From contig JBHLPQ010000001.1 of the NCBI GenBank assembly GCA_048939265.1, forward strand, positions 6,726-70,725: a DNA stretch of 64,000 nt. Direction: 5' to 3'. Source of the DNA: Promethearchaeota archaeon. GTDB lineage: Archaea; Asgardarchaeota; Heimdallarchaeia; Hodarchaeales; Hodarchaeaceae. Of the stretch, positions 10,340 through 47,155 are shown one piece after another. The first letter of the stretch is position 1. Each line of letters starts with the position of its first letter. The translations under genes and the position numbers were made by a program. The notes beneath the pieces are model-generated. The model searched no databases. It worked only from the letters and a program-made list of their open reading frames with translations, and was not told the DNA's origin.

Positions 10340-10867
10340 ATGAGAATTGTGATAGGAATGAAAGAACTAAATTATTTTGCCCAAGTATTAAATCTATTTG
10401 ATCTACTTCTACCTATTATTGTTGTTGGTGGTTTAATTATTGGAATTGTGTTGTTCTATTTTCGACGACAAATTATGGAGACCATCGGAGGAGGAGGAGT
10501 AAAGAAAACTATTCTGGAACAAGAAATTGAACAACGCCTTGTTCAAATTCGACAATTGGCACGACAACAAATGTTTAGAGAAGCATCGATCCTCATGTGG
10601 CAAACGATGACTCTTGCATCTGAAGGTTTTCTTGGTATTGGTCGTACACCGAATGAATCCGCACGTCAACTCGGTGTTAGACTGATGAATCGTGGGGATT
10701 TAGATCCGAGCGCTATTAATGCTATTGTGATGGTTTTTGAAAAAGCCCGATACAGTCAAGCTCCTCTTACAACTCAGGAATTCAAAGATGGATTGTCGGG
10801 ACTTCATCAATTCCTTCAAACAGCCACATCTGTTGGTGAGATAGCTGAAGTAGCTGAAGAGTATTGA
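10340..10867 (+). CDS. DUF4129-like membrane-anchored protein (MoxR-module accessory)
   Basis: N-terminal TM helix followed by a GRTPNESARQL....VFEKARYSQAPLTTQEF pattern typical of DUF4129 (TPxE ... ARY..p.t..e). Confidence 0.5.
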   Translation: MRIVIGMKELNYFAQVLNLFDLLLPIIVVGGLIIGIVLFYFRRQIMETIGGGGVKKTILEQEIEQRLVQIRQLARQQMFREASILMWQTMTLASEGFLGIGRTPNESARQLGVRLMNRGDLDPSAINAIVMVFEKARYSQAPLTTQEFKDGLSGLHQFLQTATSVGEIAEVAEEY

Positions 10868-10919
10868 TCATTTACATATAACTGATGAGATTAATATAGT
10901 AAAGACTAAGTGAGACTTT

Positions 10920-12668
10920 ATGGTAGATCGAACAACCTCTGCACTGATCATCCTAGCCATTTTCATTAGTTATCCTTTTGCAGCAGCATTCTTACTGGGT
11001 ATAGTAGCTGTAGATAGAAACACAACTAATTTTTCCATTTATAATGAAGGTTGGAATGGAGCTAGTGCATTCAAGAAAATGTTCGAAGAATATGGCGACG
11101 AAGGGGAAGGGGGTCAAATCTCTACTATTGTTGGCAGTAATAATGTTCTAAATCGTTTAAATGCTTCTGAATCCAACAGTTCTCTCATCATATTAGGCCC
11201 AGCAGTCCATTATGATTTTTCCGAAGCATTAGCTATTGTTTTTTACGCTATTAAGGGAGGACGAGTTTTAATCGCAGATGACTTTGGCACAGCTAATGAT
11301 ATCCTTGGAGTTCTTTCTATCTTTCTAGGAATGATGGCACAGATAGATTTAGGTGGTTTGGGGTACAGTGATGCGACAGGAGGGACAAATATCTTTGGAT
11401 TTGAAACAACTACAGACAATACTACAACTACAACCACCACTGAGTCATGTGATCTCGGTGCAAATTTCCCAATTGCTGGAGTTGCCATTAATGGGAGCCT
11501 ACTAGTTGACCAAGGTAGCTACAAACCTCCTACCCCTCTCACGCCGATATTTCATTCTCCTGTTTCAGTTACTCAAGGTACCAGCTATCGAATGCCAGCC
11601 CCTTGGGTCACTGAATTTACAGAGGGGCTCAGTGGTAATGGTGTTGTGGGAAATTTTGCTTCAATCATAACAATGAAGGTTCGTTATCCAGTTAACGCGA
11701 CAGAGGACCCCATTACAGGAGAATGCCAAGTCTCTTATGAAACTAAATGGGTGCCAATGGGAGAGTTTCCAGCTTCTCTATCCAACGCGTTTTCTGATGT
11801 AAAAAGCCAAGTCTCTAATTTAAATATCCCTGATTTTTCCTTCAGTTTTCAAATCGCTGTCCTCTATAGCAGTAGTGAGGCATGGTTAGAATCTGATATT
11901 GAATTAGCAAAGCAAGATGTTAATAAAATAGGCCCAAATGTGACTGAATGGGGAAACCCAACCATTGGATTTCCAGTTTTTGTTTATTTTCCTTTTCCTC
12001 TAGGAGGAGACTTAACCATCTGTTCAGATCCCTCCATTTTCATCAATGAGTATATTGATGATGAAAGAGAAGAGTATGATTCAACTTACGATAATAGAGC
12101 TTTTGCTCAAAATGTAGTCGATAAAATGATGACAAGTCGGCCAGGTCAAACAATCATATTTGATGAAGGACACCTTGCAAATCACCCTTTATCACCAACC
12201 CTCCCACTTAGTTTATATCTGAAATTTCTCGATATGATTTCAATGTTTCCCCTCTTTGCGTGGGCTTTACCAATTGGAGCAATTATATTATCAAGACGAT
12301 TTATGCCGAAAAGAACACAAGCTAAACCTCTTCTGTTAACCCGTGTTGAACGATATTATGGGCGTAGCTTTTTCGCAGTTAAAATGCGTTGGTTCCTTGA
12401 ATATCAACAATATTCGCGCGGTTTAGAACTGATATATCGCCGTTTAAGGCGTAATTTAATTCGCCGCTACAATCCAGAGGTTGACCTTACCCCTGAAGTG
12501 GCCGCTACTTACTTAGCAAACGAATTTCCCGATCGTTTCACTCATAGAGGCATTACTGATGGGTTAATTGCAATCGAACGGATTATTGATAGTCGAGCTG
12601 CGATTTCTGAACAAGAATTTTTAGATCACTATCTATTCCTAAAAAACATTGGAGTAGAGATAACTTAA
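10920..12668 (+). CDS. DUF4350-like (GldG/GATase1-like) extracytoplasmic domain protein with a Thr-rich linker, a TM helix and a C-terminal DUF4129-like segment
   Basis: N-terminal signal/TM, a SLIILGPAVHYDFSEALAIVFYAIKGGRVLIADDFG block resembling DUF4350, a TTTTTTTT run, the TM MFPLFAWALPIGAIILS, and a C-terminal LTPEVAATYL...ISEQEF motif. Confidence 0.5.
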   Translation: MVDRTTSALIILAIFISYPFAAAFLLGIVAVDRNTTNFSIYNEGWNGASAFKKMFEEYGDEGEGGQISTIVGSNNVLNRLNASESNSSLIILGPAVHYDFSEALAIVFYAIKGGRVLIADDFGTANDILGVLSIFLGMMAQIDLGGLGYSDATGGTNIFGFETTTDNTTTTTTTESCDLGANFPIAGVAINGSLLVDQGSYKPPTPLTPIFHSPVSVTQGTSYRMPAPWVTEFTEGLSGNGVVGNFASIITMKVRYPVNATEDPITGECQVSYETKWVPMGEFPASLSNAFSDVKSQVSNLNIPDFSFSFQIAVLYSSSEAWLESDIELAKQDVNKIGPNVTEWGNPTIGFPVFVYFPFPLGGDLTICSDPSIFINEYIDDEREEYDSTYDNRAFAQNVVDKMMTSRPGQTIIFDEGHLANHPLSPTLPLSLYLKFLDMISMFPLFAWALPIGAIILSRRFMPKRTQAKPLLLTRVERYYGRSFFAVKMRWFLEYQQYSRGLELIYRRLRRNLIRRYNPEVDLTPEVAATYLANEFPDRFTHRGITDGLIAIERIIDSRAAISEQEFLDHYLFLKNIGVEIT

Positions 12669-12710
12669 TCTTAATTAAACCGTACTGATGATCTTTAAGA
12701 TAAATTAGAA

Positions 12711-13778
12711 GTGAAAGAAATGAGCAAAACCGATTTGAAAGGGAAAGATTTCACTAGTGATGAATTAACTTATGAAATGCTGGATGTTCACGATATAGCT
12801 CGTGCATATCAACAAATAATGGGAGAAATCCGAAAAGTATACATCGGAAGGACTGAAATCTTCGAAATGCTTTGGATTGCTATGTTAACGGGTAAGCATG
12901 TCTACCTCGAAGGCGTTCCAGGTATAGGGAAGACTTACATGGCAGAAACCTTTTCTAAAGTCCTTGGAACTGAATATAAACGAATTCAATTCACGCCAGA
13001 TATGCTTCCTTCAGATATCGTTGGAACAAATATTTTTAATCCTAAAACAGGAACCTTCCGACTAAAGAAGGGCCCCATTTTTGGTAATGTTATTCTCGCA
13101 GATGAAATTAACCGAGCTCCTCCGAAAACACAATCTGCAATGCTTGAAGCTATGGCTGAACGACAAGTTTCAATCGAAGGGGAAACGCACAAGCTCGAAC
13201 AACCATTTGTTGTTATGGCGACAGCAAACCCTGTTGAACAAGAAGGAACATATCCCCTCCCTGAAGCTCAATTAGACCGTTTTATGATTAAAGTTATCGT
13301 TCACCATTCTTCTCCTGACGATGAATTACGAATTATTAAATTTAAAAACGAACCCGTCCCCGCGACACTCAACCAAGTTGTTTCTCCTCAAACAATTGTA
13401 GCTATGATGGATGTGGTAAAAAGAGTCTATGTTTGTCCTGAAATCCTAGAAATGATACGTGATATCACTGTTTCAACTCGAACTGACCCACGGTTAGTCT
13501 TGGGATGTTCTCCTCGTGGGAGTGAAAGTCTTTTGTTGTCAGGAAAAGCTAGAGCTGCTATACATGGTCGTGAATATGTCATTCCAGATGATATTCTTTT
13601 AATGATACCTCATATAGTACATCATCGCCTTATACTCAAACCTGAAGCTGAATTAGAAGGAATCACGCAGATTCGTATTGCTGAAGATGTTCGAGATGGA
13701 TTGGTGCTACCAGTAGACCCAATAGAAGAAGAAGCAGTCTATGAAGAGTATTATGAAGAAGAAGTATACGAAGAATAG
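12711..13778 (+). CDS. moxR: MoxR-family AAA+ ATPase
   Basis: Walker A GVPGIGKT, Walker B ILADEINRAPPKTQSAMLEAM, and AAA_3/MoxR architecture with a C-terminal lid. Acidic C-terminal tail. Confidence 0.9.
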   Translation: MKEMSKTDLKGKDFTSDELTYEMLDVHDIARAYQQIMGEIRKVYIGRTEIFEMLWIAMLTGKHVYLEGVPGIGKTYMAETFSKVLGTEYKRIQFTPDMLPSDIVGTNIFNPKTGTFRLKKGPIFGNVILADEINRAPPKTQSAMLEAMAERQVSIEGETHKLEQPFVVMATANPVEQEGTYPLPEAQLDRFMIKVIVHHSSPDDELRIIKFKNEPVPATLNQVVSPQTIVAMMDVVKRVYVCPEILEMIRDITVSTRTDPRLVLGCSPRGSESLLLSGKARAAIHGREYVIPDDILLMIPHIVHHRLILKPEAELEGITQIRIAEDVRDGLVLPVDPIEEEAVYEEYYEEEVYEE

Positions 13779-13806
13779 GAAGAGTTTTTACTAGGTGTAA
13801 ATGTGA

Positions 13807-15279
13807 ATGCTTTCATCCCGAGGAGCCTTCATTGCAATTGGAGGTATATTATTAATTTCTGTAGGATTAAGTGCCAAAGGAATCGGTACTGTAGCTACAA
13901 TGTTCCCCATTCTCTCAGGTGAAGAAGGATGGGAAGCTACTGAAGAACCAGCTCCAACAAACGGAAACACAACTTCAATGGCAGACTTATTCAGACCGTT
14001 TGAAATTCTGAATAGTTCTCCGATAGTAGATTATGGCATGTTCCTTGGTACTTTATTGTTGTTAGCAAGTATCATTGGTCTACCCTTTTTCCGTGTGTCA
14101 GCTAACGCATCACTTATACGAGTTACACGTACCGTGGATCGAGAGAAAGCTTTTGCCGGGGAGTATGTCCATGTGACGGTTAAAATTGAAAACACTGGAC
14201 GCCGCCGAATGGACTTTTTGGAGATCTATGATGCCATTCCTGATATGTTTGAAATCGCCTTAGGTGAAAACTTCATTATTACTCAGCTTGAAGGTAGAGA
14301 GACTAAGGAATTCTCCTATATCGTTCAAGTAAGTACACGTGGAGTTTATCGCATTGGACCAGTGAAGGTCATCATTCATGATAGATTAGGATTTTATTTT
14401 GAAGAAGACATAAGGCACTTCTATACAGAAATTCTTTGTTATCCTTCGTACGAAGATATTAGGCGGATGGAAGCATTGAGTAAACGAAGACAACAAGGAA
14501 AGATGTTTGGGGCTCATAAAACAAAACAGAAAGGAATGGGAGACGATTTTCACGCATTAGCACGATACTACCCTGGTGCCCCCTTCAAATCTTTAGATTG
14601 GAAAGCTTTCAGCCGTACAGGGGAACTCATGGTTAGAGAGTTTGAATCAGAGAAGAATATTCGGATGGTTGTCTTTCTAGACCATAGTGGCAGTATGGGA
14701 GCTGGACTTCCTTTTAATACGAAACTAGACTTCGCTATCCGCTCTGTTATGCTAGTCATGAAGATGGCAGAAGAACGTCAAGATTTATTCGGAATGGTAA
14801 CATTTGCTGACCGACCCACATCTTTTCTTCCACCAGGAGGAGGAAAAGCAATGTTCTTTCAATTACTGGAAATTCTAGCTCTCGTAGAACCTCAAGGTCG
14901 ATCGGATCCTTTAGCTGCAGTAGATTTTGTGATGCAGAGGGTACCTCGTGCCTCATTTTATGTTTTTCTGACTGATCTTGAATCCTCTGATTCAGAAATT
15001 TTCACTGAAGCTGCAAAGCGCGCCCGTGCAACTAAGAACAACATAACTGTAATTTCCCCTTTCGGGCCGCTTTTTGAAACCAAGCTCAGTGATCTAACAG
15101 CCACAGAACGAGCTATAGCAGAAGCAATTTTCGAGGAGTATCTTGGATACAGAAAACAAGTAGAAGATAGATTGAGAGGATTGGGTGTCGAAATCATAAA
15201 TGTTGGCCCTGATGATATGCTTCCCAATGTAATTAAGACATATATGGAAGGAAAACAAGCAGGAAAAGGAACTGTGTAA
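13807..15279 (+). CDS. DUF58 protein with a von Willebrand factor A (MIDAS) domain
   Basis: Two N-terminal TM helices, the DUF58 core, and a MIDAS motif VFLDHSGSM (DxSxS). Canonical partner of MoxR. Confidence 0.8.
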   Translation: MLSSRGAFIAIGGILLISVGLSAKGIGTVATMFPILSGEEGWEATEEPAPTNGNTTSMADLFRPFEILNSSPIVDYGMFLGTLLLLASIIGLPFFRVSANASLIRVTRTVDREKAFAGEYVHVTVKIENTGRRRMDFLEIYDAIPDMFEIALGENFIITQLEGRETKEFSYIVQVSTRGVYRIGPVKVIIHDRLGFYFEEDIRHFYTEILCYPSYEDIRRMEALSKRRQQGKMFGAHKTKQKGMGDDFHALARYYPGAPFKSLDWKAFSRTGELMVREFESEKNIRMVVFLDHSGSMGAGLPFNTKLDFAIRSVMLVMKMAEERQDLFGMVTFADRPTSFLPPGGGKAMFFQLLEILALVEPQGRSDPLAAVDFVMQRVPRASFYVFLTDLESSDSEIFTEAAKRARATKNNITVISPFGPLFETKLSDLTATERAIAEAIFEEYLGYRKQVEDRLRGLGVEIINVGPDDMLPNVIKTYMEGKQAGKGTV

Positions 15280-15282
15280 AAT

Positions 15283-16680
15283 ATGCCCGCAGGACAAGCA
15301 ACAGCTCATTTCTTTCGGATTTTATATATCACAATATTTGTGATTTCTGCGGTCTTGGTTCTTGTCAGTATTGATCCTTCTATGTTTGATTTCGCACAGG
15401 TCTTCAATATCTTAGAATATATTATGTTGATAGTGCAAGTGCTAATCCAGGCTTTCGCTGGTGTAGCATTAAGCTTAGTATCTATGATTGCCTCAATTAT
15501 AAAGGATATTCCTTTCATCGGGGATATCCTTCCCTTCGGGAATGTTCAATCTAATGGATATAGTAGTATGGTCAATGCTCTTACAGCCATTACCAATCCT
15601 GAAAATGGTTTTTTCCCACATTCCAGCGCAACAACGATCACTTCATTTATTGAAGATTTTGGGAACTTTGTGGGAGCTACTACAATCCTGATTCTTCTTC
15701 CCGTTGCGTTTCTCTCAGGAATTGGATTTCTTCGTGAGGGAGACACGAAACTAGCGATATATTCATTTTTAGGGTTTCAACTTATCGTAATAATTGCCAT
15801 TTTTACAGAAAAGATCAATATATCCACAACTATCAATGCAGATGTATCAACTTCAACATTTTTCTTGACGTACATAATTGAAAACTTAATAGCAATGATC
15901 TTGAGTCCAATTTTCACCCTTGGATTTATATTATATCTTCTATTAGAAATCGCTTTTCAAACCTCCTATACTTTGAATATTATTGAACCCATGACTGAAC
16001 GAGAAAAAAGAATCCAAGGACACCTAAAGAGAATTCGCACTTTTGTCCCCTTATCGGAAGAAGAAAAGGGAAAAGAGCAATCTATTCAGAGCGTACAATC
16101 AAAAAAGTTTGATCTGCTTGCAGCGAGTTATCTACGAGAGATGGTCGAAAGACGTGTCTTTAAGAAAGGAGAAGTAATGCGGGATGCAAAATCAACCATG
16201 CGTTTACAGTCATATCTCGCAAGTTTAAATCAAAGTGATCCTGAAACTGATTTAAAATTAGCAGCAAAAACTGCTCAACCTGATATTTCAGCACTACTTC
16301 GACATTTTGTCCCAGCAATGGTTTTCCGTATCATTGCAGTCACAATTCTGGCTTATATTATTATTTCGCCAGAAATTCTTCTTAATCCTTTAGTAGGAAG
16401 TTCGTTTCCAGCACTTTTGCACAGTCTGGAACTCGGCCAACCTGAATTTCAAACAATTGCCATTCTCAATATAGTATTACTTTTTATTCTCATCAGTGTA
16501 ATTCTTCATTTCTTTTCTGGTGGAAGAACTAGTAAAATCGTCGAAAGAGTTGTTCAACAGATTGATACACTTGTAGACTTTGATAGGGCTCCAACACCAG
16601 TTGCAGCACCAGCTGCCGATGAACCATCTGAAGAAGAGGAAGAGGAACCTCCTTCCGATGAGGAAGAAGAAATTTCCTAA
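15283..16680 (+). CDS. Polytopic membrane protein with a C-terminal acidic (EEEEEEPPSDEEEE) tail, last gene of the MoxR module
   Basis: Multiple hydrophobic segments and a low-complexity acidic C-terminus. It starts 4 nt after the DUF58 stop. Confidence 0.45.
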   Translation: MPAGQATAHFFRILYITIFVISAVLVLVSIDPSMFDFAQVFNILEYIMLIVQVLIQAFAGVALSLVSMIASIIKDIPFIGDILPFGNVQSNGYSSMVNALTAITNPENGFFPHSSATTITSFIEDFGNFVGATTILILLPVAFLSGIGFLREGDTKLAIYSFLGFQLIVIIAIFTEKINISTTINADVSTSTFFLTYIIENLIAMILSPIFTLGFILYLLLEIAFQTSYTLNIIEPMTEREKRIQGHLKRIRTFVPLSEEEKGKEQSIQSVQSKKFDLLAASYLREMVERRVFKKGEVMRDAKSTMRLQSYLASLNQSDPETDLKLAAKTAQPDISALLRHFVPAMVFRIIAVTILAYIIISPEILLNPLVGSSFPALLHSLELGQPEFQTIAILNIVLLFILISVILHFFSGGRTSKIVERVVQQIDTLVDFDRAPTPVAAPAADEPSEEEEEEPPSDEEEEIS

Positions 16681-26760: not shown

Positions 26761-27072
26761 TCAGTCGCGAAGCTCAATAGACGTTTCAGGAAATCCTTCA
26801 TCAACTAGAATTGGTGAAATCGATCGAAGAAAATTACCCTGAAGCTCAATTCGGCCATCTTTCGTTGTTCCACCTGTTGCTAAACTCTTCTTCAGACGTT
26901 TAGACAGGCTTCTAAGATCGATATCTTTAGACAGTCCATCAATGACCGTCACCTCACGTCCCCATTTTCGTTTTTCAATAAAAACCCGAATTGACGTTTG
27001 TTCTTCTCGTGCAATATCAGAGCAAGCGCATAACTCTTCTGGCAGACCGCAGGTCTTGCAAATACTACCCAT
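26761..27072 (-). CDS. sui1: Translation initiation factor aSUI1 (eIF1 homolog)
   Basis: ICKTCGLPEELCACSDIAREEQ..IRVFIEKRKWGREVTVIDGL.....DLRSLSKRLKKSLATGGTTKDGRIELQGNF matches the archaeal SUI1 zinc-ribbon + SUI1 fold. Confidence 0.9.
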   Translation of the reverse strand: MGSICKTCGLPEELCACSDIAREEQTSIRVFIEKRKWGREVTVIDGLSKDIDLRSLSKRLKKSLATGGTTKDGRIELQGNFLRSISPILVDEGFPETSIELRD

Positions 27073-27196: not shown

Positions 27197-27343
27197 TCAA
27201 TCAGTTTTCAACCTTTTGATAATTGGAGGACGCTTTTTCAACAATATTCGGTGGCCACAAATAATGCACCGAATTCCAGGTAAAGTTTCTAATTCCGCAG
27301 GGTCAATCTCCTGGTGGCATTTTTGACATAGATATGTCGTCAT
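27197..27343 (-). CDS. rpoP: DNA-directed RNA polymerase subunit P (Rpo12/RpoP, RPABC4 homolog), 48 aa. Not in the supplied ORF table because it is under 60 aa.
   Basis: Manual translation: MTTYLCQKCHQEIDPAELETLPGIRCIICGHRILLKKRPPIIKRLKTD. It has a C-x2-C...C-x2-C zinc ribbon with the RCPYCG.RIL.K.RP pattern characteristic of Rpo12, and sits between SUI1 and an ABC operon. Confidence 0.7.
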   Translation of the reverse strand: MTTYLCQKCHQEIDPAELETLPGIRCIICGHRILLKKRPPIIKRLKTD

Positions 27344-27609
27344 ATTTTCAGCCTTCAATCCTTAAGAAGTCTCATTTTGATTTCTCTTATAAAAAGCGCT
27401 TAAAAGACAACTTGATAAAATTTGCTATAGTAGGAGTATCTTTTTAGAGGACAAAAGATCAATTTAGGTGAATACCTCAACCTTGATAGAATATCTTATA
27501 AACTAAAGGGAGTAAATTTTGAATATTATAATACAAAAGTGGTGAATTGGGCGACTTTGAATGGATTCAGCCGTTTTGAATGTGCATGAACATCATTGGG
27601 GTATAACTC

Positions 27610-39629: not shown

Positions 39630-39730
39630 GGCCGACGTAGGATAGATACGAGCAGCTGACTGCTTGTAGTACAATGGTAGTCTCGGAGGTTGTGGCCCTT
39701 CATGTCCGGGTTCGATTCCCGGTGTCGGCC
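39630..39730 (+). tRNA. tRNA-His(GUG) with an encoded G-1 and a ~27-nt insertion (non-canonical intron) in the D-arm region. No encoded CCA.
   Basis: Manual fold: G-1 then acceptor GCCGACG/UGUCGGC, discriminator C73 (the G-1:C73 pair is diagnostic of His), anticodon stem GGAGG/CCUUC with loop UUGUGGC (anticodon GUG), T-arm CCGGG-UUCGAUU-CCCGG. The 5' half between the acceptor and anticodon stems is about 27 nt too long and contains a GCAGC/GCUGC hairpin, consistent with a BHB intron. Confidence 0.6.
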
Positions 39731-39901: not shown

Positions 39902-41044
39902 CTATTCCATATTCGCATGAACTATTGGAGGATCACCAGGAGTTATTGTGATTAAATTTCTTGAAACTAACTCCTCTTGTAACATTTGTTTGAGCCTCGT
40001 GGGATGTGCACCAACAGACATGGCAAGTGTAGGAAGATCTAGAGAACCTCCAAGATTTAGTAAAATCAAGATTGAAGCATATAAGGGATGGGTGGAAAGT
40101 AACCTCTGAGTGTATTCCAAGATTATATTACGTTGAGTACGTTCATCATATATTTTGGTCAGTTTTTCTTGAAGGGTTTTCTGCTCCTCTTCGGCCATTG
40201 TAAGAGCTTCTTCCAGACGAGATACCGTCATTTTATACTGTTTAGAGTCTACTTCATGTCGTTCAATTTCATTCTTTAAGCGGGTCTGCATTTCTTCTAT
40301 CTCTAAATCATAATCCTGACGTACCTGCTTTAATCGTTGTTGTACAGCCTCTTCTAACATCCGAGCATAATAATCTTCTTGTATTTGATAGGTTTCAGCA
40401 ACTGAGGCTAACGCCTCTTCAATATCTTTTTCGTGGATCTTTTCATTCTCTTTTAATTTTTCAATTAACGCCTCTTTCGCAGCTAATTCTGATCTAATCT
40501 CCACAACGCTTTTTTGGGTTAGCTGTTCCTGCTCTTGAAGGCTTTGAACTTGATTCTGCAACCGTTTGATTTCTATCTCTTGTTGTGCGACTTTATCCTT
40601 ATTTTCCTCATAAATCTGACGGTTTTCCTCCCGCTCGTGTTCAAACTGAGACAGCTGTGTATTCTTGTCTTTGATCTGGCCTTTTAAGGTCTTAATCTCT
40701 GCCTCGAATACTTGAATTTGTTCTTCTGTAACAGAAGAAGTGACTTCTTGAAGGAATGTCGCATCACTTTGAATGATTTGGCGAATCCGACCCAAAGATT
40801 TGAGTGTAATACGGGTCAATTCTCCATCTACAACACGTGCGGTCTCCTTCCTGATTATTTTAATAAATTCTTCTAAATCTTTGTAAGTAAAATGTGGAAG
40901 GCCTTGGGTGACGAAAGAGCTTTTCGCCCCAGAAATACCTACACCAATCTCCTGCTGAGCAACCTCTCGATCTTTAGCCATTTCATTAATAAACTCTAAA
41001 CCATACTCCTTCAGCGTTTTTTGTGCCATATATCTTTCCTTCAT
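39902..41044 (-). CDS. Hypothetical coiled-coil protein (380 aa) with a C-terminal winged-helix-like segment
   Basis: Central ~250 aa are heptad-rich with Glu/Gln/Lys/Leu. No enzymatic motif. Confidence 0.4.
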   Translation of the reverse strand: MKERYMAQKTLKEYGLEFINEMAKDREVAQQEIGVGISGAKSSFVTQGLPHFTYKDLEEFIKIIRKETARVVDGELTRITLKSLGRIRQIIQSDATFLQEVTSSVTEEQIQVFEAEIKTLKGQIKDKNTQLSQFEHEREENRQIYEENKDKVAQQEIEIKRLQNQVQSLQEQEQLTQKSVVEIRSELAAKEALIEKLKENEKIHEKDIEEALASVAETYQIQEDYYARMLEEAVQQRLKQVRQDYDLEIEEMQTRLKNEIERHEVDSKQYKMTVSRLEEALTMAEEEQKTLQEKLTKIYDERTQRNIILEYTQRLLSTHPLYASILILLNLGGSLDLPTLAMSVGAHPTRLKQMLQEELVSRNLITITPGDPPIVHANME

Positions 41045-41115
41045 ATATTGAGAAGAATCTCGCTCATAATTTAATTTAAATTATAAAATTTTCAGCTTCC
41101 TTTAAATCATTCTAC

Positions 41116-41883
41116 ATGACGAATGAAAAAGAGGCCTCTCTCATGTCAGCAGAGCAAAACAATGTACTGTTTCAGAAATTCAATCTTTCCTTAAATCTAA
41201 AATTACCTCTAGCATTACTCATTGAAGCTCTTACACACCCGTCCTACAAATCAGTAGATCCTAATATTCGTGATAATCAACGACTTGAAACGCTTGGAGA
41301 TTCCGTTATTGATCTTCTCGTTCTTAATTGGTTCTATCACAAGGATGTAATGACTGAAGGAATGTTAACGAAGAAACGGGCCGAAATTGTCCAAAACACC
41401 ACATTAGCGAAAATAGGGAAAGACTTACAATTAGACTCAATCCTACGCTGTGCACCAGCTTATATAATTCAAGAAAAAGATATTGCTGATACTATTGAAG
41501 CCATCTTCGGAGCAGTATTCGTAGCTAATGGATTGTCTTTATGTCAGTCGCTGTTATTACAACTGTTTGAGGATCTTTTAGATAATGCTTTGAACTCCGA
41601 TGAGAATGAAAGCTTTATTCTAGGCCAAAATGAAATTAATCCAAAAAATCAGCTCCAGGAATTTTTTCAGCAGCGGTATTTACCTGAACCTATATATCGA
41701 TTACTTAAAAAGGAGGGGAGTGATCATGAACCAAGATATTGGTATTTATGTCAAGGAACATACCAAGAGGAGATTGTGAAAGGGGAAGGATTTGGAAAAA
41801 ATAAAAAAGAAGCGCAGAAAGACGCTGCCCAAAACTTGCTCAAAAAACTCATTCACTTGGAAAATCAGGTTAATTGTGATTAA
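41116..41883 (+). CDS. rnc: Ribonuclease III (bacterial-type, catalytic domain plus C-terminal dsRBD)
   Basis: RNase III signature HPSY....NQRLETLGDSVIDLLV, a second acidic cluster DTIEAIFGAVF, and a C-terminal dsRBD (NPKNQLQEFFQQRYLPEPIYRL...GEGFGKNKKEAQKDAAQNLLKKL). Confidence 0.85.
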   Translation: MTNEKEASLMSAEQNNVLFQKFNLSLNLKLPLALLIEALTHPSYKSVDPNIRDNQRLETLGDSVIDLLVLNWFYHKDVMTEGMLTKKRAEIVQNTTLAKIGKDLQLDSILRCAPAYIIQEKDIADTIEAIFGAVFVANGLSLCQSLLLQLFEDLLDNALNSDENESFILGQNEINPKNQLQEFFQQRYLPEPIYRLLKKEGSDHEPRYWYLCQGTYQEEIVKGEGFGKNKKEAQKDAAQNLLKKLIHLENQVNCD

Positions 41884-41902
41884 GCAATGTTTCAAAGAAC
41901 TT

Positions 41903-42298
41903 CTATTTCAAGGGGACAAATTGTGATCCTCTTGTGGCTCCAATACCAGGAGCGGAGTGCTTAACCTGTTTACAGGTGGGCGCAAACTCCCCTAAATAAT
42001 GTCCAAGCATTTCTGGGAGAAGATTGACACGAAGAAACTCCTTACCGTTGTAAACCTGAACAACAGCACCAATAAGTTCGGGAAGAATGATGAAATCGCG
42101 GCAGTGCGTTCGAATAGGCCGTTTTGATTCTTTGCTAGCCAGAATGCGTTCCATTAGTTTAATGTGCTGAGAACTCATTCCACGGGTCAGAGATCGACGC
42201 TGGCGAGCAGGAAGGAGGGAAATAAATTCATCCATGGATTTTTGACGGAGTTCATCGAGTGTAAATCCACGATAACGAAAACCACGACGTGATGACAA
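41903..42298 (-). CDS. rps19: 30S ribosomal protein S19 (uS19 / S15e-type archaeal form)
   Basis: FRYRGFTLDELRQKSMDEFISLLPARQRRSL....THCRDFIILPELIGAVVQVYNGKEF...PEMLGHYLGEFAPT.K.VKHSAPGIGATR matches archaeal/eukaryotic uS19. Confidence 0.85.
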   Translation of the reverse strand: MSSRRGFRYRGFTLDELRQKSMDEFISLLPARQRRSLTRGMSSQHIKLMERILASKESKRPIRTHCRDFIILPELIGAVVQVYNGKEFLRVNLLPEMLGHYLGEFAPTCKQVKHSAPGIGATRGSQFVPLK

Positions 42299-42659
42299 TT
42301 AAATTCACCTTTACTTTCATATCCAGGGAAAATAAGATAGGGTTAAAAAAAAGTAGGTAGACCATCTGATGGAGGAGAGTTAAGAAAATTAAATGTATTA
42401 AAAATGCTGTATTATAAAAAAGGTTAGAATGGAGAATTTAATGTGTTGTAGAAACCAAAATAGCTGAAATAATGAATAGGCAAGGAAGAGGCAGAAATTC
42501 TTCAAAGGATTTGAAATGCGTACATGAATCAGTGGGAGGAGATGATTTTTATAACGAAAAAATCGTAACCTTAAATGTTTAAAACAAGCCAATACTACGT
42601 GTAAAGGTTAAAAAACAGGAAAACAATAGAGGATTCAGGATTATTCCTCAATCTTTAAA

Positions 42660-43136
42660 ATGGTTGAATTTGAAGTGCCGAATTACAAGATCTCCGTCTT
42701 TGGGTTAGATGCAGACCGCACTGCGATTGCAACAGGACGGAATATGCGAATTTCGCCAAAGCATGCTCGTGAAATTTGTCATGAATTAAAAGGGAAATAC
42801 TTAGAAACCGCTCAAGAATATCTTGAACAAGTAATCGCAGGAGAAAAAAGTGTTCCTTTCAAACGATATCGGAAAAAAATACCTCACCGACGCGATTTAC
42901 AGAAATGGCCAGCAGGGCGTTACCCCCAAAAGGCAGCAAGGGAAATTCTCCGAGTCTTGGAAAATGTGGAACAGAATTCCTCATTCAAAGGATTAGAGGT
43001 TAGCCGGTTACGAATAACCCATATTGCGGCTCAAAGAGGACGAAAAATCCGAGGAATTATGCCACGAGCCCATGGACGGTCATCACCAAGCAATCAAACA
43101 TTAACTCATGTCGAGGTAGTGGTTACGGAGGAGTGA
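42660..43136 (+). CDS. rpl22: 50S ribosomal protein L22 (uL22)
   Basis: Archaeal uL22 pattern (ISPKHAREICHELKGKYLETAQEYLEQV....GLEVSRLRITHIAAQRG), in position before uS3. Confidence 0.85.
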   Translation: MVEFEVPNYKISVFGLDADRTAIATGRNMRISPKHAREICHELKGKYLETAQEYLEQVIAGEKSVPFKRYRKKIPHRRDLQKWPAGRYPQKAAREILRVLENVEQNSSFKGLEVSRLRITHIAAQRGRKIRGIMPRAHGRSSPSNQTLTHVEVVVTEE

Positions 43137-43139
43137 GGG
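43127..43139 (+). promoter_or_regulatory. Shine-Dalgarno-like GGAGGAGTGAGGG immediately upstream of the rps3 start
   Basis: A purine-rich GGAGG stretch ending about 2-7 nt before the ATG of the internal operon gene. Confidence 0.3.
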
Positions 43140-43140
43140 A

Positions 43141-43932
43141 ATGGCTGCAAGAAAAGAGTTATTAAATAGGAATTTGCAATACGTTCAAGTAAGTGAATAC
43201 CTAAATGATGAATTACAGTTAGCAGGGCAAGGGAAGGTTGAGATTCATAAAACACCAATGGGCCATCGAGTGGTAATCCACGCTGTACGATTAGGAATGG
43301 TGATTGGGAGACGTGGACGAAATATTAGAAAAATCACTGAAATTCTAGAGCATAAATTCGGATTAGAAACTCCTCAACTAGAAATCAAAGATCTTGAAAA
43401 TCCTAGACTTAATTCCCGAGTAATGGCTGGTAGATTAATTTCACAAATTCAAAAGGGGTTCCACTTTCGTAGAGCAGGGTATGCTTTAGTTCGACGAATC
43501 ATGTCCGCAGACGCACGAGGTTGCGAAATTACAATAAAAGGCAAATTAACCTCCCAACGAGCACGTGCGGAAGTTTTCAGAGAAGGGTTCGTGGCAAAAT
43601 GTGGAGAGCCTTCAAAAAGATACGTCGAAGATACAGTAATGGAAGTAACACTCAAACAGGGAGTTATCGGGGTACATGTAAAGATTATGCAACCCGATGC
43701 AGTACTCCCTGATGATGCCGTACTCATACCAAATGTTTTTGGTGAACCAAAAGATGAAGTGATCATCGAGGAAGAAGAAGAATTTGTCGAAGAAGAACTA
43801 AAACCAGAAACTGAGGAAGAGCCCATACCTGAAACGAAAGCAGAAGAAGATATAATTGAAGCGGATCCTGAAGATGCAATTGAAAAAAGTGAAGAATTGC
43901 TGAAAGAGGAAGATTTTGAAGAAGAAAGGTGA
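43141..43932 (+). CDS. rps3: 30S ribosomal protein S3 (uS3) with an acidic C-terminal extension
   Basis: KH domain (RLGMVIGRRGRNIRKITEILEHKFG), the uS3 C-terminal domain, then a Glu-rich tail. Confidence 0.9.
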   Translation: MAARKELLNRNLQYVQVSEYLNDELQLAGQGKVEIHKTPMGHRVVIHAVRLGMVIGRRGRNIRKITEILEHKFGLETPQLEIKDLENPRLNSRVMAGRLISQIQKGFHFRRAGYALVRRIMSADARGCEITIKGKLTSQRARAEVFREGFVAKCGEPSKRYVEDTVMEVTLKQGVIGVHVKIMQPDAVLPDDAVLIPNVFGEPKDEVIIEEEEEFVEEELKPETEEEPIPETKAEEDIIEADPEDAIEKSEELLKEEDFEEER

Positions 43933-44150
43933 TAGAAACGGCAATATTAAGGAAAGCTGAGATTCGGAAATTGTCTCTTCCTGAACGGGAGAAGAAGTTA
44001 AAAGAATTGAAAACCGAATTATTGACATTGAGAGGCAAAGCTAAAACAGGATCAATTGAATCCGCCGGTCGTGTCCGTGAACTAAGACGAACAGTGGCAC
44101 GAATCCTTACCATTAATAAGGAAGAGCAAAATGTCCCGAAATCACCGTGA
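43929..44150 (+). CDS. rpl29: 50S ribosomal protein L29 (uL29), GTG start
   Basis: LRKAEIRKLSLPEREKKLKELKTELLTLRGKAKTG..ESAGRVRELRRTVARILTI matches the uL29 helical hairpin. The start overlaps the rps3 stop. Confidence 0.8.
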   Translation: MIETAILRKAEIRKLSLPEREKKLKELKTELLTLRGKAKTGSIESAGRVRELRRTVARILTINKEEQNVPKSP

Positions 44151-44418
44151 AGTATCACTAGAGAGAAATCTATTAAGAATTAGGTTAATAAATCGTCAAT
44201 GCGAAATTGAATATTCAGGCAATGTATTTTCAGGACAAATTAGGAACGAAACAAAAAATACCTGGGAAATAATGACCACATCAGGGTTGAAAACAATCCC
44301 AAAGGATCAAGCTAAATTACGAATCACAATTAATAACCAATCATACAAAATAAATGGTAACCAAATGAAAGGACGATATGAAGATCGCATTAAGCGTATG
44401 AGGAAACGTAAATGGTGA
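44131..44418 (+). CDS. rnp1: Ribonuclease P protein component 1 (Rpp29/Pop4 homolog)
   Basis: Conserved operon position between uL29 and uS17 in archaea. The Sm-like beta region is followed by the C-terminal GRYEDRIKRMRKRK basic tail typical of Rpp29. Confidence 0.65.
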   Translation: MSRNHREVSLERNLLRIRLINRQCEIEYSGNVFSGQIRNETKNTWEIMTTSGLKTIPKDQAKLRITINNQSYKINGNQMKGRYEDRIKRMRKRKW

Positions 44419-44756
44419 AGAAAAAGTATTCACGACAAATTGGAATCGCCCCGACACCTAAGAGGACGTGTGATGACCAGAACTGTCCCTTCCATGGAAC
44501 ATTATCTGTTCGTGGACGAATTATTGAAACAAAAGTGATTTCAGACAGAATGGACAAAACAGTGACAGTTGAAAGACCATATCTGGAATTAATAAGGAAA
44601 TACAAACGTTATGGGCGATCAACAATACGAATGCATGCTCATAATCCCCCTTGCATCGACGCGAAGGTGGGAGACCATATACGAATTGGAGAATGTCGTC
44701 CACTATCAAAAACCGTTTCTTTCGTTGTAATTGAAAATCTTGGGAAAGGAGAATGA
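44412..44756 (+). CDS. rps17: 30S ribosomal protein S17 (uS17)
   Basis: GIAPTPKRTCDDQNCPFHGTLSVRGRIIETKVISDRMDKTVTV.....KYKRYGRSTIRMHAHNPPCIDAKVGDHIRIGECRPLSKTVSFVVIE matches the uS17 OB-fold. Confidence 0.85.
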   Translation: MVKKKYSRQIGIAPTPKRTCDDQNCPFHGTLSVRGRIIETKVISDRMDKTVTVERPYLELIRKYKRYGRSTIRMHAHNPPCIDAKVGDHIRIGECRPLSKTVSFVVIENLGKGE

Positions 44757-44760
44757 TAAA

Positions 44761-45177
44761 GTGAAAAAAAGAAGATCATTAAGGCTTGTAACAAGGCGAA
44801 TAACACGCGCACTACCCACTGGAGCTATTGTAAGAGTGGCAGATAACTCTGGGGCAAGAATGATTCAGGTAATTAGTGTGAAAGGGCATAACACCCGATT
44901 AAGAAGACAACCAGCTGCTAGGGTCGGGGATATGATCGTATGTTCAGTCAAAAAAGGAACCCCAAAACTAAGAAGGCAGATAGTCCACGCCGTTGTAATT
45001 AGACAGAAAAAACCCTATAAACGATCAGATGGGAGTTGGGTATATTTTGAAGATAACGCAGTAGTAGTCACAAACGAACAAGGAGAACCACGTGGAAGCG
45101 AAATCCGAGGAGCCGTATCAAAAGAAGCTGCTGATGCGTGGCCACGAATTGCGAGTACTGCAAGAGTGATTTCCTGA
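44761..45177 (+). CDS. rpl14: 50S ribosomal protein L14 (uL14). The GTG start is chosen just after the rps17 stop; the alternative in-table ATG at 44731 would overlap rps17.
   Basis: TRALPTGAIVRVADNSGARMIQVISVKG...VGDMIVCSVKKGTPKLRRQIVHAVVIRQKK......FEDNAVVV matches the uL14 consensus. Confidence 0.8.
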   Translation: MKKRRSLRLVTRRITRALPTGAIVRVADNSGARMIQVISVKGHNTRLRRQPAARVGDMIVCSVKKGTPKLRRQIVHAVVIRQKKPYKRSDGSWVYFEDNAVVVTNEQGEPRGSEIRGAVSKEAADAWPRIASTARVIS

Positions 45178-45180
45178 AAG

Positions 45181-45606
45181 GTGAAAAAAATGGGTACAAA
45201 GACTCGAGATCCATCGAAACAAAGACGCAGGCTATACTCCGCAGACTCATTTCATCGATCAAAACTGATGTCAGCACGACTCTCCAAAGACCTACGAGAG
45301 AAGTACAAGGTGAGAAAAATGCCCGTACGAACAGGCGATACGGTCTATATTACCACGGGCGACTTCACTGGGACAGAAGGGAAAGTACTCTCTATCGATA
45401 CGAAAAAACGACGATTAGCAGTTGATGGAATTGCCCGCGAGAAAGCAGATAAATCAAAAGTAATGTACAAAATTGACCCCTCAAAAGTGGTTATTCGGCG
45501 GTTTGGAAAAGTAGATAGATCACGAAAGAAGATTCTTGAGCGACGGGCAAAAATGGAACTGGAAATTGACGAAGAGGACATCAGCGTTGTGGAAGAAGAG
45601 GAATAA
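45181..45606 (+). CDS. rpl24: 50S ribosomal protein L24 (uL24, KOW domain) with an acidic tail
   Basis: KOW motif (KMPVRTGDTVYITTGDFTGTEGKVLSIDTKKRRLAVDGI) and archaeal operon position. Confidence 0.85.
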   Translation: MKKMGTKTRDPSKQRRRLYSADSFHRSKLMSARLSKDLREKYKVRKMPVRTGDTVYITTGDFTGTEGKVLSIDTKKRRLAVDGIAREKADKSKVMYKIDPSKVVIRRFGKVDRSRKKILERRAKMELEIDEEDISVVEEEE

Positions 45607-45620
45607 TGGAGTAGAGAACA

Positions 45621-46403
45621 ATGGGTAAGAAAGGAAGTCCCCGACATAGAAAACGATTAAGTGCTCCAATCGCATATCCTATCCCAAGAAAGCATGGAAT
45701 CTTTACAATCAGACCTTACCCGACACGAAGTACAAGGGAATCTTCGATCCCGTTAGGAATTGTAATTAGAGAAATATTAGGATACGCCAAAACCCTTTCC
45801 GAAGTTAAAAAAATACTCAGCAAGAAAATAATCAAAATTGATGGAAAAGTGCAAACTAGCTATAAATCTAGCTTAGGACCAATGGATATATTGGAAATTA
45901 CCAAAACGGAGGAATATTTTCGGCTAACCCCCTACCGTGGCAAACGAAGATTCAAATTACACCCAATTACCAAAGATAACGCTCATCTAAAAATGCAACG
46001 AATCCAAAGAAAACAGACAGTCAAGAATAACTTAATTCAACTTACATTTCACGATGGGAGGAACTACTTAATGGATCCTAAAGAGAAGTACAAATTTCCT
46101 ATACAAGAACTTGCAGCCAAAGACAGTGTGATGTTCAACCTGGAAGAAAAAATAATCGAAGATCATTTCCCCTTTACTGAAGGTAACACCGCATTAATTA
46201 TGGGAGGACATAATGTAGGAATCGTTGGCAAAATCCAAGAGATTGAAGCTCAAAGCGGTCGGAGAACAAAAACAGTTACTTTAGAAACAGAAGAAGGAGA
46301 AATAAAAACAACAGATCAACATCTATTTGTCATCGGCCGAGAAGAACCAGTCATTGAAATACCACAAGTAATCATCACCGAGGATACTCAAGATGAGCTT
46401 TAG
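45621..46403 (+). CDS. rps4e: 30S ribosomal protein S4e (eS4)
   Basis: GSPRHRKRLSAP..YPIPRK.G.F..RP.PTRSTRESSIPLGIVIRE matches the eS4 N-terminus. Length 260 aa and position after uL24. Confidence 0.85.
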   Translation: MGKKGSPRHRKRLSAPIAYPIPRKHGIFTIRPYPTRSTRESSIPLGIVIREILGYAKTLSEVKKILSKKIIKIDGKVQTSYKSSLGPMDILEITKTEEYFRLTPYRGKRRFKLHPITKDNAHLKMQRIQRKQTVKNNLIQLTFHDGRNYLMDPKEKYKFPIQELAAKDSVMFNLEEKIIEDHFPFTEGNTALIMGGHNVGIVGKIQEIEAQSGRRTKTVTLETEEGEIKTTDQHLFVIGREEPVIEIPQVIITEDTQDEL

Positions 46404-46995
46404 AAAAAGAACTCTCCCAACAGAAGAAGAAGAAAGGAAACCAGTTCCACTCACAGATGCCGAAAAAGCCTATGTAAAAGAATGGAAAGCACATCCAATG
46501 CGAAAACCACGCATTTTAAAAGTGTGCGTGAACTTTGCAGTAGGATCATCCGGACCAAAACTGGAACAAGCTAGAGAACTGTGTGAAATCTTAACAAATC
46601 AAGCACCAGCAGATGGGAGAGCAAAAGAGTCTGTTAGAGGATTTGGTATTAGAAAACATGAACCCATCGCAGTATTCACAACGCTAAGAGGAGAACTTGC
46701 TGAAGAATTCCTGAAGAAAGCGTTTTGGGCTGTAGAAGATCAAGTTTCACAGAGAAATTTTGATAGACATGGAAACCTATCATTGGGAATAGACGACCAC
46801 CTAAAATTACCCAATATTAAATACGATCCTAAAATCGGAGTTCACGGATTTGATACAACAGTAGTTTTGGAACGCCCTGGTTATCGAACAAATCGACGGA
46901 GATCACGGAGAATGAAAATCCCAGCTAGCCATAGAATTACTAAAGAGGAAGGTATTGCTTTTTTCAAGCATGAGTTCAATCTTGGAGTTGTCTAA
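46393..46995 (+). CDS. rpl5: 50S ribosomal protein L5 (uL5)
   Basis: [38 protein letters not shown].......[20 protein letters not shown]....FLKKAFWAV matches uL5. Confidence 0.85.
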
Positions 46996-46996
46996 T

Positions 46997-47155
46997 ATGC
47001 ATAAGATGTCAGAGCCAAAGAAAAAGTTTGGGAAGGGAACACGTACCTGTCGGAGATGTGGGACACATAGAGCAGTTATACGAAAATATGGATTGTACAT
47101 CTGCAGACGATGTATCCGAGAAATTGCAGACGACTTAGGTTTTAGAAAATATTGA
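46997..47155 (+). CDS. rps14: 30S ribosomal protein S14 type Z (uS14, zinc-binding). Start moved to the internal ATG after the rpl5 stop.
   Basis: [45 protein letters not shown] is a canonical Zn-ribbon uS14. The in-table start at 46955 would overlap rpl5 by 40 nt. Confidence 0.8.

Follow-up and report, generated by a model that had tools for sequence, protein, structure and literature searches.

Published accounts call RNase III a rare or sporadic enzyme of archaea (PMC5303251, PMC7758197) and attribute its presence there to horizontal gene transfer (HGT; PMC5303251, PMC4571572), and in a review-style statement archaea are said to lack it (PMC11404451). Here, we report an rnc gene for a class-1 RNase III at positions 41116 to 41883 (forward strand) of a 64,000-nucleotide stretch of contig JBHLPQ010000001.1 from a Promethearchaeota archaeon, the whole of which is referred to as the window. 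The explanation that best covers the observations as a whole, and which we hold with good confidence, is that the gene encodes a native Asgard RNase III of a distinct family, predicted to be catalytically competent and furnished with a eukaryote-type active site. Judged from its sequence, the enzyme is bacterial-like in architecture and eukaryote-like in its active site, and the active-site observation is what is new here. In the open-access literature the only Asgard rnc mentioned was the neighbour of HrAgo1 (PMC11217426), and no account was found there of an RNase III family conserved among Asgard archaea, of a syntenic link between it and ribosomal protein (r-protein) genes or of a eukaryote-type Asn/Lys pair in it; an earlier description elsewhere is possible. 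A preliminary description of the same DNA had called the enzyme bacterial-type and had proposed either horizontal acquisition of a bacterial gene or a lineage-specific addition to RNA processing; its premise that most archaea lack RNase III agrees with the literature, where the enzyme is rare or sporadic.

The reading frame is a real and intact RNase III gene that includes a domain for binding double-stranded RNA (dsRBD), and Pfam and the AF2 model agree on the catalytic domain (RNase III domain, RIIID) and the dsRBD that had been assigned to it. Its features are as follows.

41116 to 41883, forward strand: rnc, the class-1 RNase III open reading frame (ORF), 255 amino acids (aa) (ORF call, Pfam, NCBIfam, AF2, Foldseek)
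41215 to 41562, forward strand: RIIID catalytic domain, residues 34 to 149, all-helical (Pfam PF14622/PF00636, AF2, Foldseek)
41275 to 41304, forward strand: signature motif NQRLETLGDS, residues 54 to 63, with catalytic E58 and D62 (alignments)
41395 to 41397, forward strand: codon of N94, the eukaryote-type active-site Asn, counterpart of human Dicer N1742 (alignments, PMC13334501)
41476 to 41499, forward strand: KDIADTIE, residues 121 to 128, with K121 and catalytic D125 and E128 (alignments)
41602 to 41634, forward strand: flexible linker between RIIID and dsRBD, residues 163 to 173, pLDDT below 50 (AF2 model)
41641 to 41850, forward strand: dsRBD, residues 176 to 245, alpha-beta-beta-beta-alpha (Pfam PF00035 (dsrm), E 8e-14; AF2)

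The catalytic domain matches PF14622 (Ribonucleas_3_3; E 9e-23, 81.3 bits against a cutoff of 35) and PF00636 (Ribonuclease_3; E 3e-16, 60.4 bits against a cutoff of 27), and the motifs of the dsRBD are canonical (NPKNxLQE, H204 and KKEAQKxAA). One RIIID and one C-terminal dsRBD, with no further domain found by Pfam in the 255 aa, make up the class-1 architecture. An alternative start at M10 (position 41143) would agree with most homologs. The ERLEFLGDS-type signature read earlier from the DNA, and then quoted as NQRLETLGDSVIDLLV (residues 54 to 69), is present as NQRLETLGDS, and the second catalytic acidic cluster is likewise in place, its D125 and E128 being conserved in the clade of the query, as the protein is called below.

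Missing catalytic residues had been named as grounds for abandoning the assignment, and careful alignment recovers all four acids. With Aquifex E40, D44, D107 and E110 as the reference catalytic set for the superfamily test, E58, D62, D125 and E128 of the query align with E. coli RNase III and human Drosha. Across an alignment of 43 homologs E58, D62 and E128 never vary and at least 90% of the sequences retain D125; in the clade of the query all four occur in 37/37. The AF2 model, built on the homolog alignment, has a mean pLDDT of 88.7, with values mostly of 81 to 99 across the RIIID block, and consists of an all-helical nuclease domain, a disordered linker at residues 163 to 173 and an alpha-beta-beta-beta-alpha dsRBD. 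Its best Foldseek matches are the RNase III enzymes of E. coli, Aquifex and Thermotoga (probability 1.00), the top entries being complexes of RNase III with double-stranded RNA (dsRNA) from E. coli and Aquifex, and mL44, Drosha, Dicer and Rnt1 follow at lower ranks. The nuclease domain alone was matched to M. tuberculosis 2a11 with a TM score of 0.83 (target-normalised) and an rmsd of 2.0.

A protein of this kind could also be a catalytically inactive pseudo-nuclease that merely binds dsRNA. Two observations point that way, and the first of them weighs against the enzyme proposed here as well: the query matches TIGR02191, the NCBIfam equivalog for bacterial Rnc, from end to end but at 153.1 bits, below the cutoff of 166.25. 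The second concerns a wider Asgard-containing cluster (P0044 to P0166), in which E58, D62 and E128 are kept and D125 is replaced in 26 of the 51 sequences (N 18, G 3, S 2, A 1, H 1, E 1); possible readings are that these homologs are inactive paralogs, that they serve as partners in heterodimers, or that the replacement is an artefact of the alignment. In the clade of the query, however, the complete set of acids is accompanied by N94 in 37/37 and K121 in 35/37 sequences, and the model shows a well-formed RIIID, which makes loss of catalysis a most improbable explanation.

On the sequences compared, the Asgard family carries a six-residue active site of eukaryote type that was here seen otherwise only in eukaryotic RNase III. 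Residues E58, D62, N94, K121, D125 and E128 correspond one-to-one to E1705, D1709, N1742, K1806, D1810 and E1813 in the RNase IIIb domain of human Dicer (PDB-entry numbering). The Dicer set has been treated quantum-mechanically, with K1806 stabilising the phosphorane intermediate (PMC13334501), and mutation of K1790 in mouse Dicer, the equivalent of K121, inhibits cleavage (PMC13334501; see PMC8138440, PMC3431858). When alignment columns were compared between groups, several positions of the active-site region set the Asgard sequences apart from bacteria, and at some of them the Asgard state agrees with that of the eukaryotic enzymes. The eukaryotic states were checked on sequences from PDB entries, and the regions around the Asn and the Lys read as follows.

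Query: Asn region IVQN (N94), Lys region KDIAD (K121)
S. cerevisiae Rnt1: Asn region LVSN, Lys region KLYAD
K. polysporus Dcr1: Asn region IVNN, Lys region KRYAD
P. stipitis Dicer: Asn region LIDN, Lys region KVYAD
Human Dicer RIIIDa: Asn region KVSN, Lys region KSIAD
Human Dicer RIIIDb: Asn region LVNN, Lys region KAMGD
Human Drosha RIIIDb: Asn region LVNN, Lys region KTLAD
E. coli RNase III: aligned residues LVRG and SILAD

Both residues of the Asn/Lys pair occur in 35/37 sequences of the query's clade (the other two have Arg at 121), in 33 of the 51 members of the wider Asgard-containing cluster, 12 more of which have one of the two, and in all four further sequences of the Asgard tier. Among eukaryotes the pair was present in 12 of 13 domains from Rnt1, Dcr1, Dicer, Drosha and dictyostelids, and 6 of 11 Drosha-like units had it, the remaining five having one residue. 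It was found in none of 82 sequences from named bacteria of many phyla (Asn only in three, Lys only in one) and in none of 72 further bacterial-type sequences, 0/154 in all. Both residues were also seen in P0110, P0183 and P0060, which lie outside the Asgard cluster on ORFan-rich contigs of no assignable lineage. The bacterial RBM4 motif (LGxGE..GG; GxGE..GG..S) is absent from the query (CAPAYIIQEKDIAD), and its position is held by a short, non-bacterial loop that reads CAPAYIIQE in the query and APAYxIQEKD in the family. At position 116, 55/57 bacterial sequences carry E, and at position 121 Ser is found in 67/82 and 53/72 of the two bacterial sets.

With bacterial class-1 Rnc (E. coli 7r97, Aquifex aeolicus 2ez6/2nug and Thermotoga 1o0w) the query shares an RIIID followed by a C-terminal dsRBD in about 230 to 255 aa, the four catalytic acids and the canonical dsRBD motifs (LQE, a GPxH-type His and KKxAxxxAA). 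These enzymes are its best matches in sequence and structure among solved structures, the identity still being just 29 to 36%. Unlike them, it lacks LGxGE..GG and the Ser at 121, has a shorter loop and carries Asn94, Lys121 and Q55, and its gene lies among archaeal r-protein genes, whereas era/lepA or smc-ftsY surroundings are typical of bacteria (smc-ftsY-ffh in the example L086). Eukaryotic RNase III (Rnt1 4oog, Dcr1 3rv0, Dicer and Drosha) shares with it the six-residue active site and the absence of the RBM4 motif; C143 is common to Drosha-like units, and Q55, which stands for the equivalent of E. coli E38, gives the Q before RLE that is found in the RIIIDb domains of Dicer and Drosha. Unlike these enzymes, the query has no Rnt1 N-terminal domain, second RIIID, PAZ, helicase or platform domains; E182 and H204 of its dsRBD match bacteria and differ from Drosha-like units, and in overall sequence it stands farther from the RIIIDs of eukaryotes than from those of bacteria. 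The label "bacterial-type" thus holds for domain architecture and overall fold and fails at the TIGR02191 cutoff, the missing RBM4 motif and the eukaryote-type Asn/Lys pair. Mitochondrial mL44, a structural protein of the ribosome, has a related fold (RIIID-like plus dsRBD) and was found as a structural match and a weak Pfam match (PF22935) at 17 to 21% identity; in contrast to it, the query keeps all catalytic residues.

The relatives of the query define the family. A HMMER scan covering all of 1.84 billion cluster representatives returned 13,556 relatives of RNase III, only 14 of them at E<=1e-30, and the nearest 20 or so representatives are all Asgard where they are named. Homologs at 52 to 93% identity derive from metagenomes and metagenome-assembled genomes (MAGs), the named ones being labelled Heimdallarchaeota, Hodarchaeota/Hodarchaeales, Promethearchaeota and, in one case, Thorarchaeota. 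The tier below the query's cluster, at 35 to 43% identity, bears the labels Heimdallarchaeota, Hodarchaeota, Hodarchaeales, Heimdallarchaeaceae, Odinarchaeota, Thorarchaeota, Promethearchaeota and "archaeon". In a profile search Asgard sequences scored at least 209 bits, and about 160 bits was reached by the highest-placed named bacteria (Acholeplasmataceae, Anaerococcus), although this search missed several of its own input members and added little beyond the score gap. The named bacterial reference set came from a scan of GTDB species representatives with the clade alignment, which gave at least 591 confirmed bacterial rnc loci with a best identity of 29 to 36% among the matches listed. By its lack of the RBM4 motif and its six-residue active site this family stands apart from bacterial Rnc, and the nearest relatives of the query, where named, are all from Asgard archaea. 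Of the two origins proposed at first, a lineage-specific addition to RNA processing comes closer, with the qualification that the lineage is a broad one, extending over Heimdall, Hod, Loki/Prometh, Thor and Odin MAGs.

The setting of the gene is archaeal, as the preliminary description had concluded from the translation-machinery genes, and each marker it named was verified. The window contains eS4, an archaeal uL24 (L26/L24P family), L17e-type uL22, uS19, uS3, uL29, uS17, uL14, uL5 and a zinc-ribbon uS14, together with Rpp29 (44131 to 44418), aSUI1 (26761 to 27072, reverse strand) and RpoP (27197 to 27358, reverse strand). Its ribosomal proteins are 82 to 98% identical to those of CP070695.1, the complete 4.94-Mb chromosome of a "Candidatus Heimdallarchaeota archaeon" (locus L081 below), and the window belongs to an Asgard archaeon of the Heimdall group. 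The position of rnc beside the r-protein cluster is borne out, the stop codon of uS19 lying 19 nt from that of rnc on the opposite strand.

41884 to 41902, no strand: spacer of 19 nt that separates the stop codons of the convergent genes rnc and uS19 (sequence)
41903 to 42298, reverse strand: uS19, in opposite orientation to the other r-protein genes of the cluster and converging on rnc (ORF call, Pfam, synteny)
42660 to 47155, forward strand: r-protein operon uL22, uS3, uL29, Rpp29, uS17, uL14, uL24, eS4, uL5, uS14 (Pfam; same order in L081, L083, L084 and L091)

This arrangement is shared by seven loci, namely the window, L081, L083 (like L081 a complete Heimdallarchaeota chromosome, of 3.16 Mb), L084 and the metagenome contigs L091, L092 and L093. 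In each of them, as far as the contigs reach, rnc in forward orientation is followed by the inverted, converging uS19, a divergent spacer and then uL22-uS3-uL29-Rpp29-uS17-uL14-uL24-eS4-uL5-uS14-TYW2. The stop-to-stop spacer of rnc and uS19 measures 7 to 37 nt in all seven, and the divergent uS19-uL22 spacer 361 to 405 bp in the four loci that were aligned. Identity of rnc to the window gene falls from 78% (L093) over 68% (L081), 64% (L092) and 63% (L084) to 57% (L083), and this order is that of the r-protein identities, as co-inheritance of rnc with the r-proteins predicts. The gene is at the same time the fastest-evolving one of its neighbourhood: against L081 it is 68% identical, compared with 82 to 98% for the r-proteins, TYW2, CobA and a coiled-coil protein, a sign that constraint on the nuclease may be relaxed or that it is under diversifying selection.

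The other origin that had been proposed, recent gain of a bacterial rnc by horizontal transfer, must be measured against these data. It would fit a domain architecture and overall fold that best match bacterial Rnc, mean RIIID distances that are smaller between Asgard and bacteria (1.09 to 1.27) than between Asgard and eukaryotes (1.35 to 1.40), and reviews stating that archaeal RNase III came from bacteria by HGT (PMC5303251, PMC4571572). The comparison of codon usage and GC content with the neighbouring genes, suggested in the preliminary description, shows a native composition (GC 36.6%, GC3 31.6%, synonymous codon usage mid-range among 32 other genes of the window). To this are added the low identity to any listed bacterial match, the synteny in seven loci with divergence congruent with the r-proteins, the Asgard affiliation of every named nearest relative with a sharp score gap before bacteria, and the exchange of RBM4 motif and Ser121 for Asn94/Lys121. 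Recent transfer is effectively refuted and retains hardly any probability, while an ancient transfer into an early Asgard ancestor is possible. As far as sequence can tell, rnc is native to this Asgard archaeon of the Heimdall group and has been inherited vertically; it is not a recent bacterial import.

The relation of the family to eukaryotic RNase III was examined by phylogenetic tests. In a bootstrapped neighbour-joining (NJ) tree of 219 RIIID+dsRBD units the query's clade received a support of 0.91 and the eukaryotic Drosha-like clade 0.59 to 0.86; the deep nodes of this tree had a support of at most 0.1, and it contained no supported Asgard-eukaryote clade. When quartets were scored over all RIIID columns, Asgard and eukaryotes paired in 83 to 88%, against 52% for a long-branch control from the Candidate Phyla Radiation (CPR). 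After removal of the diagnostic and RBM4 columns the figures were 52 to 58% against 49%, so that beyond these columns the quartet test held no extra Asgard-eukaryote signal relative to the CPR control. As the signal vanishes without the diagnostic columns, the eukaryote link rests on a few functionally coupled active-site characters. The mean Asgard-eukaryote RIIID distance also exceeds both the Asgard-bacteria and the eukaryote-bacteria distance. In a sequence search of the PDB, Drosha ranked above most bacterial enzymes; this was rejected as a sign of eukaryotic affinity, the rank being the sum of two domain matches of about 36 bits each. Among the best non-Asgard matches were also proteins of 480 to 800 aa (P0088, P0090, P0106, P0121, P0186 and P0115; P0080, P0091, P0103, P0145 and P0161), some with two full RIIID+dsRBD units in tandem and others of a compact "mini-Drosha" form (RIIIDa-RIIIDb-dsRBD), a group that clusters with Drosha in the NJ tree.

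The likeness in Asn and Lys could have arisen by convergence, or by an ancient bacterial origin followed by modification, and both are possible. We raise only tentatively, and as rather doubtful on present sequences, the proposal that among prokaryotes the Asgard family stands nearest to the RNase III domain of eukaryotes and that Rnt1, Drosha and Dicer owe their six-residue active site, with its Asn and Lys, to the archaeal host lineage rather than to the mitochondrial endosymbiont. In such a history the archaeal host lineage may itself have obtained RNase III from bacteria long before. A heimdallarchaeial ancestry of eukaryotes is among the inferences of Eme et al. (2023), and an origin in the host lineage has been treated as an alternative that "cannot be ruled out" (Koonin 2017, PMC5303251). 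The account from which this alternative departs draws chiefly on the rarity of RNase III in archaea, where sporadic HGT is held to be its only source (PMC5303251, PMC4571572). Three findings bear on this account: RNase III is stable and vertically inherited in a Heimdall-group lineage, the named members of the family span several Asgard phylum and order labels, and the family has an Asn/Lys pair that none of the 154 bacterial-type sequences has. Were the host origin true, the nuclease half of RNA interference and Rnt1-type RNA processing would move to the archaeal side of eukaryogenesis, beside the Asgard PIWI-like Argonaute. With the present family at hand, the origin of the eukaryotic RNase III module becomes directly testable. 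A predicted dsRNA-specific nuclease also joins the Asgard toolkit for RNA metabolism, beside an RNA-guided Argonaute. Should the residue pattern be convergent, the finding would still offer a clean case of an archaeal RNase III subfamily fixed at the edge of an r-protein cluster.

The enzyme is predicted to be a homodimer whose two catalytic domains would form a single processing centre, and the expected chemistry is a staggered double cut in dsRNA by a two-metal-ion, Mg2+-dependent mechanism; dimerisation, dsRNA specificity and chemistry are here transferred by homology. From its context the gene may serve a housekeeping turnover of dsRNA linked to the ribosome and to r-protein expression, a suggestion made with considerable reserve. 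A candidate substrate would be the sense-antisense duplex of uS19 and rnc transcripts at the conserved tail-to-tail junction, possibly as part of a feedback loop.

41801 to 41826, reverse strand: terminator-like hairpin and T6 run inside the 3' coding region of rnc, putative 3' end of the uS19 mRNA (sequence heuristic)

The first T5+ run past the uS19 stop codon lies 55 to 91 nt inside the rnc coding sequence in all six measurable loci, and in the window it follows the hairpin; on this basis the uS19 mRNA is predicted to end in antisense to that of rnc. It is plausible from the sequence that such a tail-to-tail duplex is autoregulatory or couples the two genes.

Several points weigh against a role tied to the ribosome or against the proposed duplex. 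The A-run that gives the T-run of the uS19 terminator also encodes the conserved Lys-Lys of the dsRBD and is not independent evidence, and read-through of rnc into uS19 is not conserved, since a T5+ run stands 12 to 20 nt past the rnc stop codon in three of the seven loci. The rapid divergence of rnc agrees no less well with an accessory or conflict-related role than with a core one in ribosome biogenesis. Four homologs of the divergent Asgard tier were located on contigs that are clearly archaeal (histone, thermosome, CDC48, RNA polymerase subunit D or Arf-family GTPase), and none of the four is adjacent to uS19 or linked to r-protein genes; the r-protein linkage is thus specific to the query's clade, and the shared gene order may be no more than an accident frozen in one family. 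Finally, Asgard archaea have circular rRNA intermediates, and EndA and RtcB were present in all archaeal genomes searched in the same study (PMC12918454), so that a primary role in rRNA excision is not needed.

The last point bears directly on pre-rRNA processing as the primary function, that is, cleavage of 16S/23S leader-trailer stems in replacement or support of bulge-helix-bulge (BHB) processing by EndA. Yeast Rnt1 acts in pre-rRNA processing. Bacterial RNase III does so as well (PMC11404451), and the gene abuts the r-protein/Rpp29 cluster in seven loci. Besides the circular intermediates, the intron-containing tRNA-His of the window, with an intron of the kind EndA removes, is consistent with an active splicing endonuclease, and the divergent Asgard homologs are without a link to ribosomal genes. 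Neither EndA nor rRNA genes were found in the 64-kb window. RNase III as a replacement for BHB/EndA processing, an alternative that the preliminary description had implied, is unlikely and finds no support in the literature, and pre-rRNA processing as the primary task is regarded as rather improbable.

Guide-RNA biogenesis in the manner of Dicer, together with an Asgard Argonaute, has a precedent in the Lokiarchaeon Ca. Harpocratesius repetitus, where an rnc-HrAgo1-helicase neighbourhood was described and generation of guides proposed (PMC11217426). The eukaryote-type active site and the fast evolution of rnc would be compatible with conflict or silencing. The rnc flanking HrAgo1, known here by its published description (Bastiaanssen et al. 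2024, PMC11217426), also combines an Asgard RNase III domain with a dsRBD, but it belongs to Lokiarchaeia, with a different accession, and lies in an operon with Argonaute and a helicase, a different gene in a different context from the r-protein cluster here. No Argonaute, PAZ/PIWI or helicase was found in the 64-kb window or within 10 kb of rnc in L081, L083 and L084, the conserved neighbours are r-protein genes, and the PADLOC defence search gave no match for rnc. A Dicer-like function of the present gene is accordingly judged improbable.

Upstream of rnc lies a divergently transcribed gene, with which it shares a short intergenic region.

39902 to 41044, reverse strand: coiled-coil protein of 380 aa, transcribed divergently from rnc, the two start codons 71 bp apart (ORF call, Pfam, synteny)
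41045 to 41115, no strand: AT-rich divergent promoter region of 71 bp, common to rnc and the upstream coiled-coil gene (TATA-like TTTAAATTATAAAA)

The mRNA of rnc probably has a short leader or none. The coiled-coil protein occupies the same position in five of the seven loci at 77 to 86% identity, and L083 has at this position only a shorter protein (about 118 residues matched, 66% identity). It belongs to no convincing Pfam family, and its weak PADLOC matches to LmuB and JetC (SMC-like) cover only the coiled coil. The intron-containing tRNA said to be next to rnc does exist, at a distance of 1.4 kb upstream and separated from rnc by another gene, so that "next to" is a loose description. It is a tRNA-His(GUG) at 39630 to 39730 (forward strand) with an encoded G-1 and a 29-nt intron in a non-canonical position near the acceptor/D-arm junction, at about 39639 to 39667, the exact borders being ambiguous (GTAG repeat). 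ARAGORN in default mode found no tRNA here and the Rfam gathering search a partial one; manual removal of the intron gave a clean tRNA-His. A tRNA-Pro called by ARAGORN with the intron option is doubtful.

The archaeal S10/spc-type r-protein cluster is broken at uS19/uL22, with uS19 inverted and alone and uL3/uL4/uL23/uL2 not upstream. In the usual archaeal order the remaining r-protein genes of the cluster come after uS14. Here the operon from uL22 to uS14 continues instead into a gene for a TYW2/Trm5-type tRNA methyltransferase, in all seven loci as far as the contigs reach. The spacer between uS19 and uL22 contains a 76-nt block (GAATCAGTGGGAGGAGATGATTTTTATAACGAAAAAATCGTAACCTTAAATGTTTAAAACAAGCCAATACTACGTG, 42526 to 42601) that is almost invariant across the four aligned loci and includes a TATA-like TTTTTATAA at 42546 to 42554; three further copies of its 33-nt core were found in a metagenome scan, all with the same synteny. 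A non-coding RNA was considered for this block and rejected in view of the 87 to 98% identity of the flanking r-proteins, the lack of an Rfam match and the TATA-like box. From its sequence the block is probably the promoter of the uL22 operon with a conserved 5' leader of about 80 nt.

Elsewhere in the window, an ORF of 1733 aa (4988 to 10189, forward strand) has no Pfam domain at E<=0.001, and it is followed at 10340 to 16680 (forward strand) by a DUF4129 / DUF4350 / MoxR AAA+ / DUF58-VWA set that forms a module of the MoxR-VWA type. Between 27610 and 36558 two mirrored modules stand head to head, each with a protein of about 960 aa that has a C-terminal FtsX-like permease domain and with two ABC ATPase genes, and a comparable FtsX/ABC module is found near the rnc homologs in L081 and L088.

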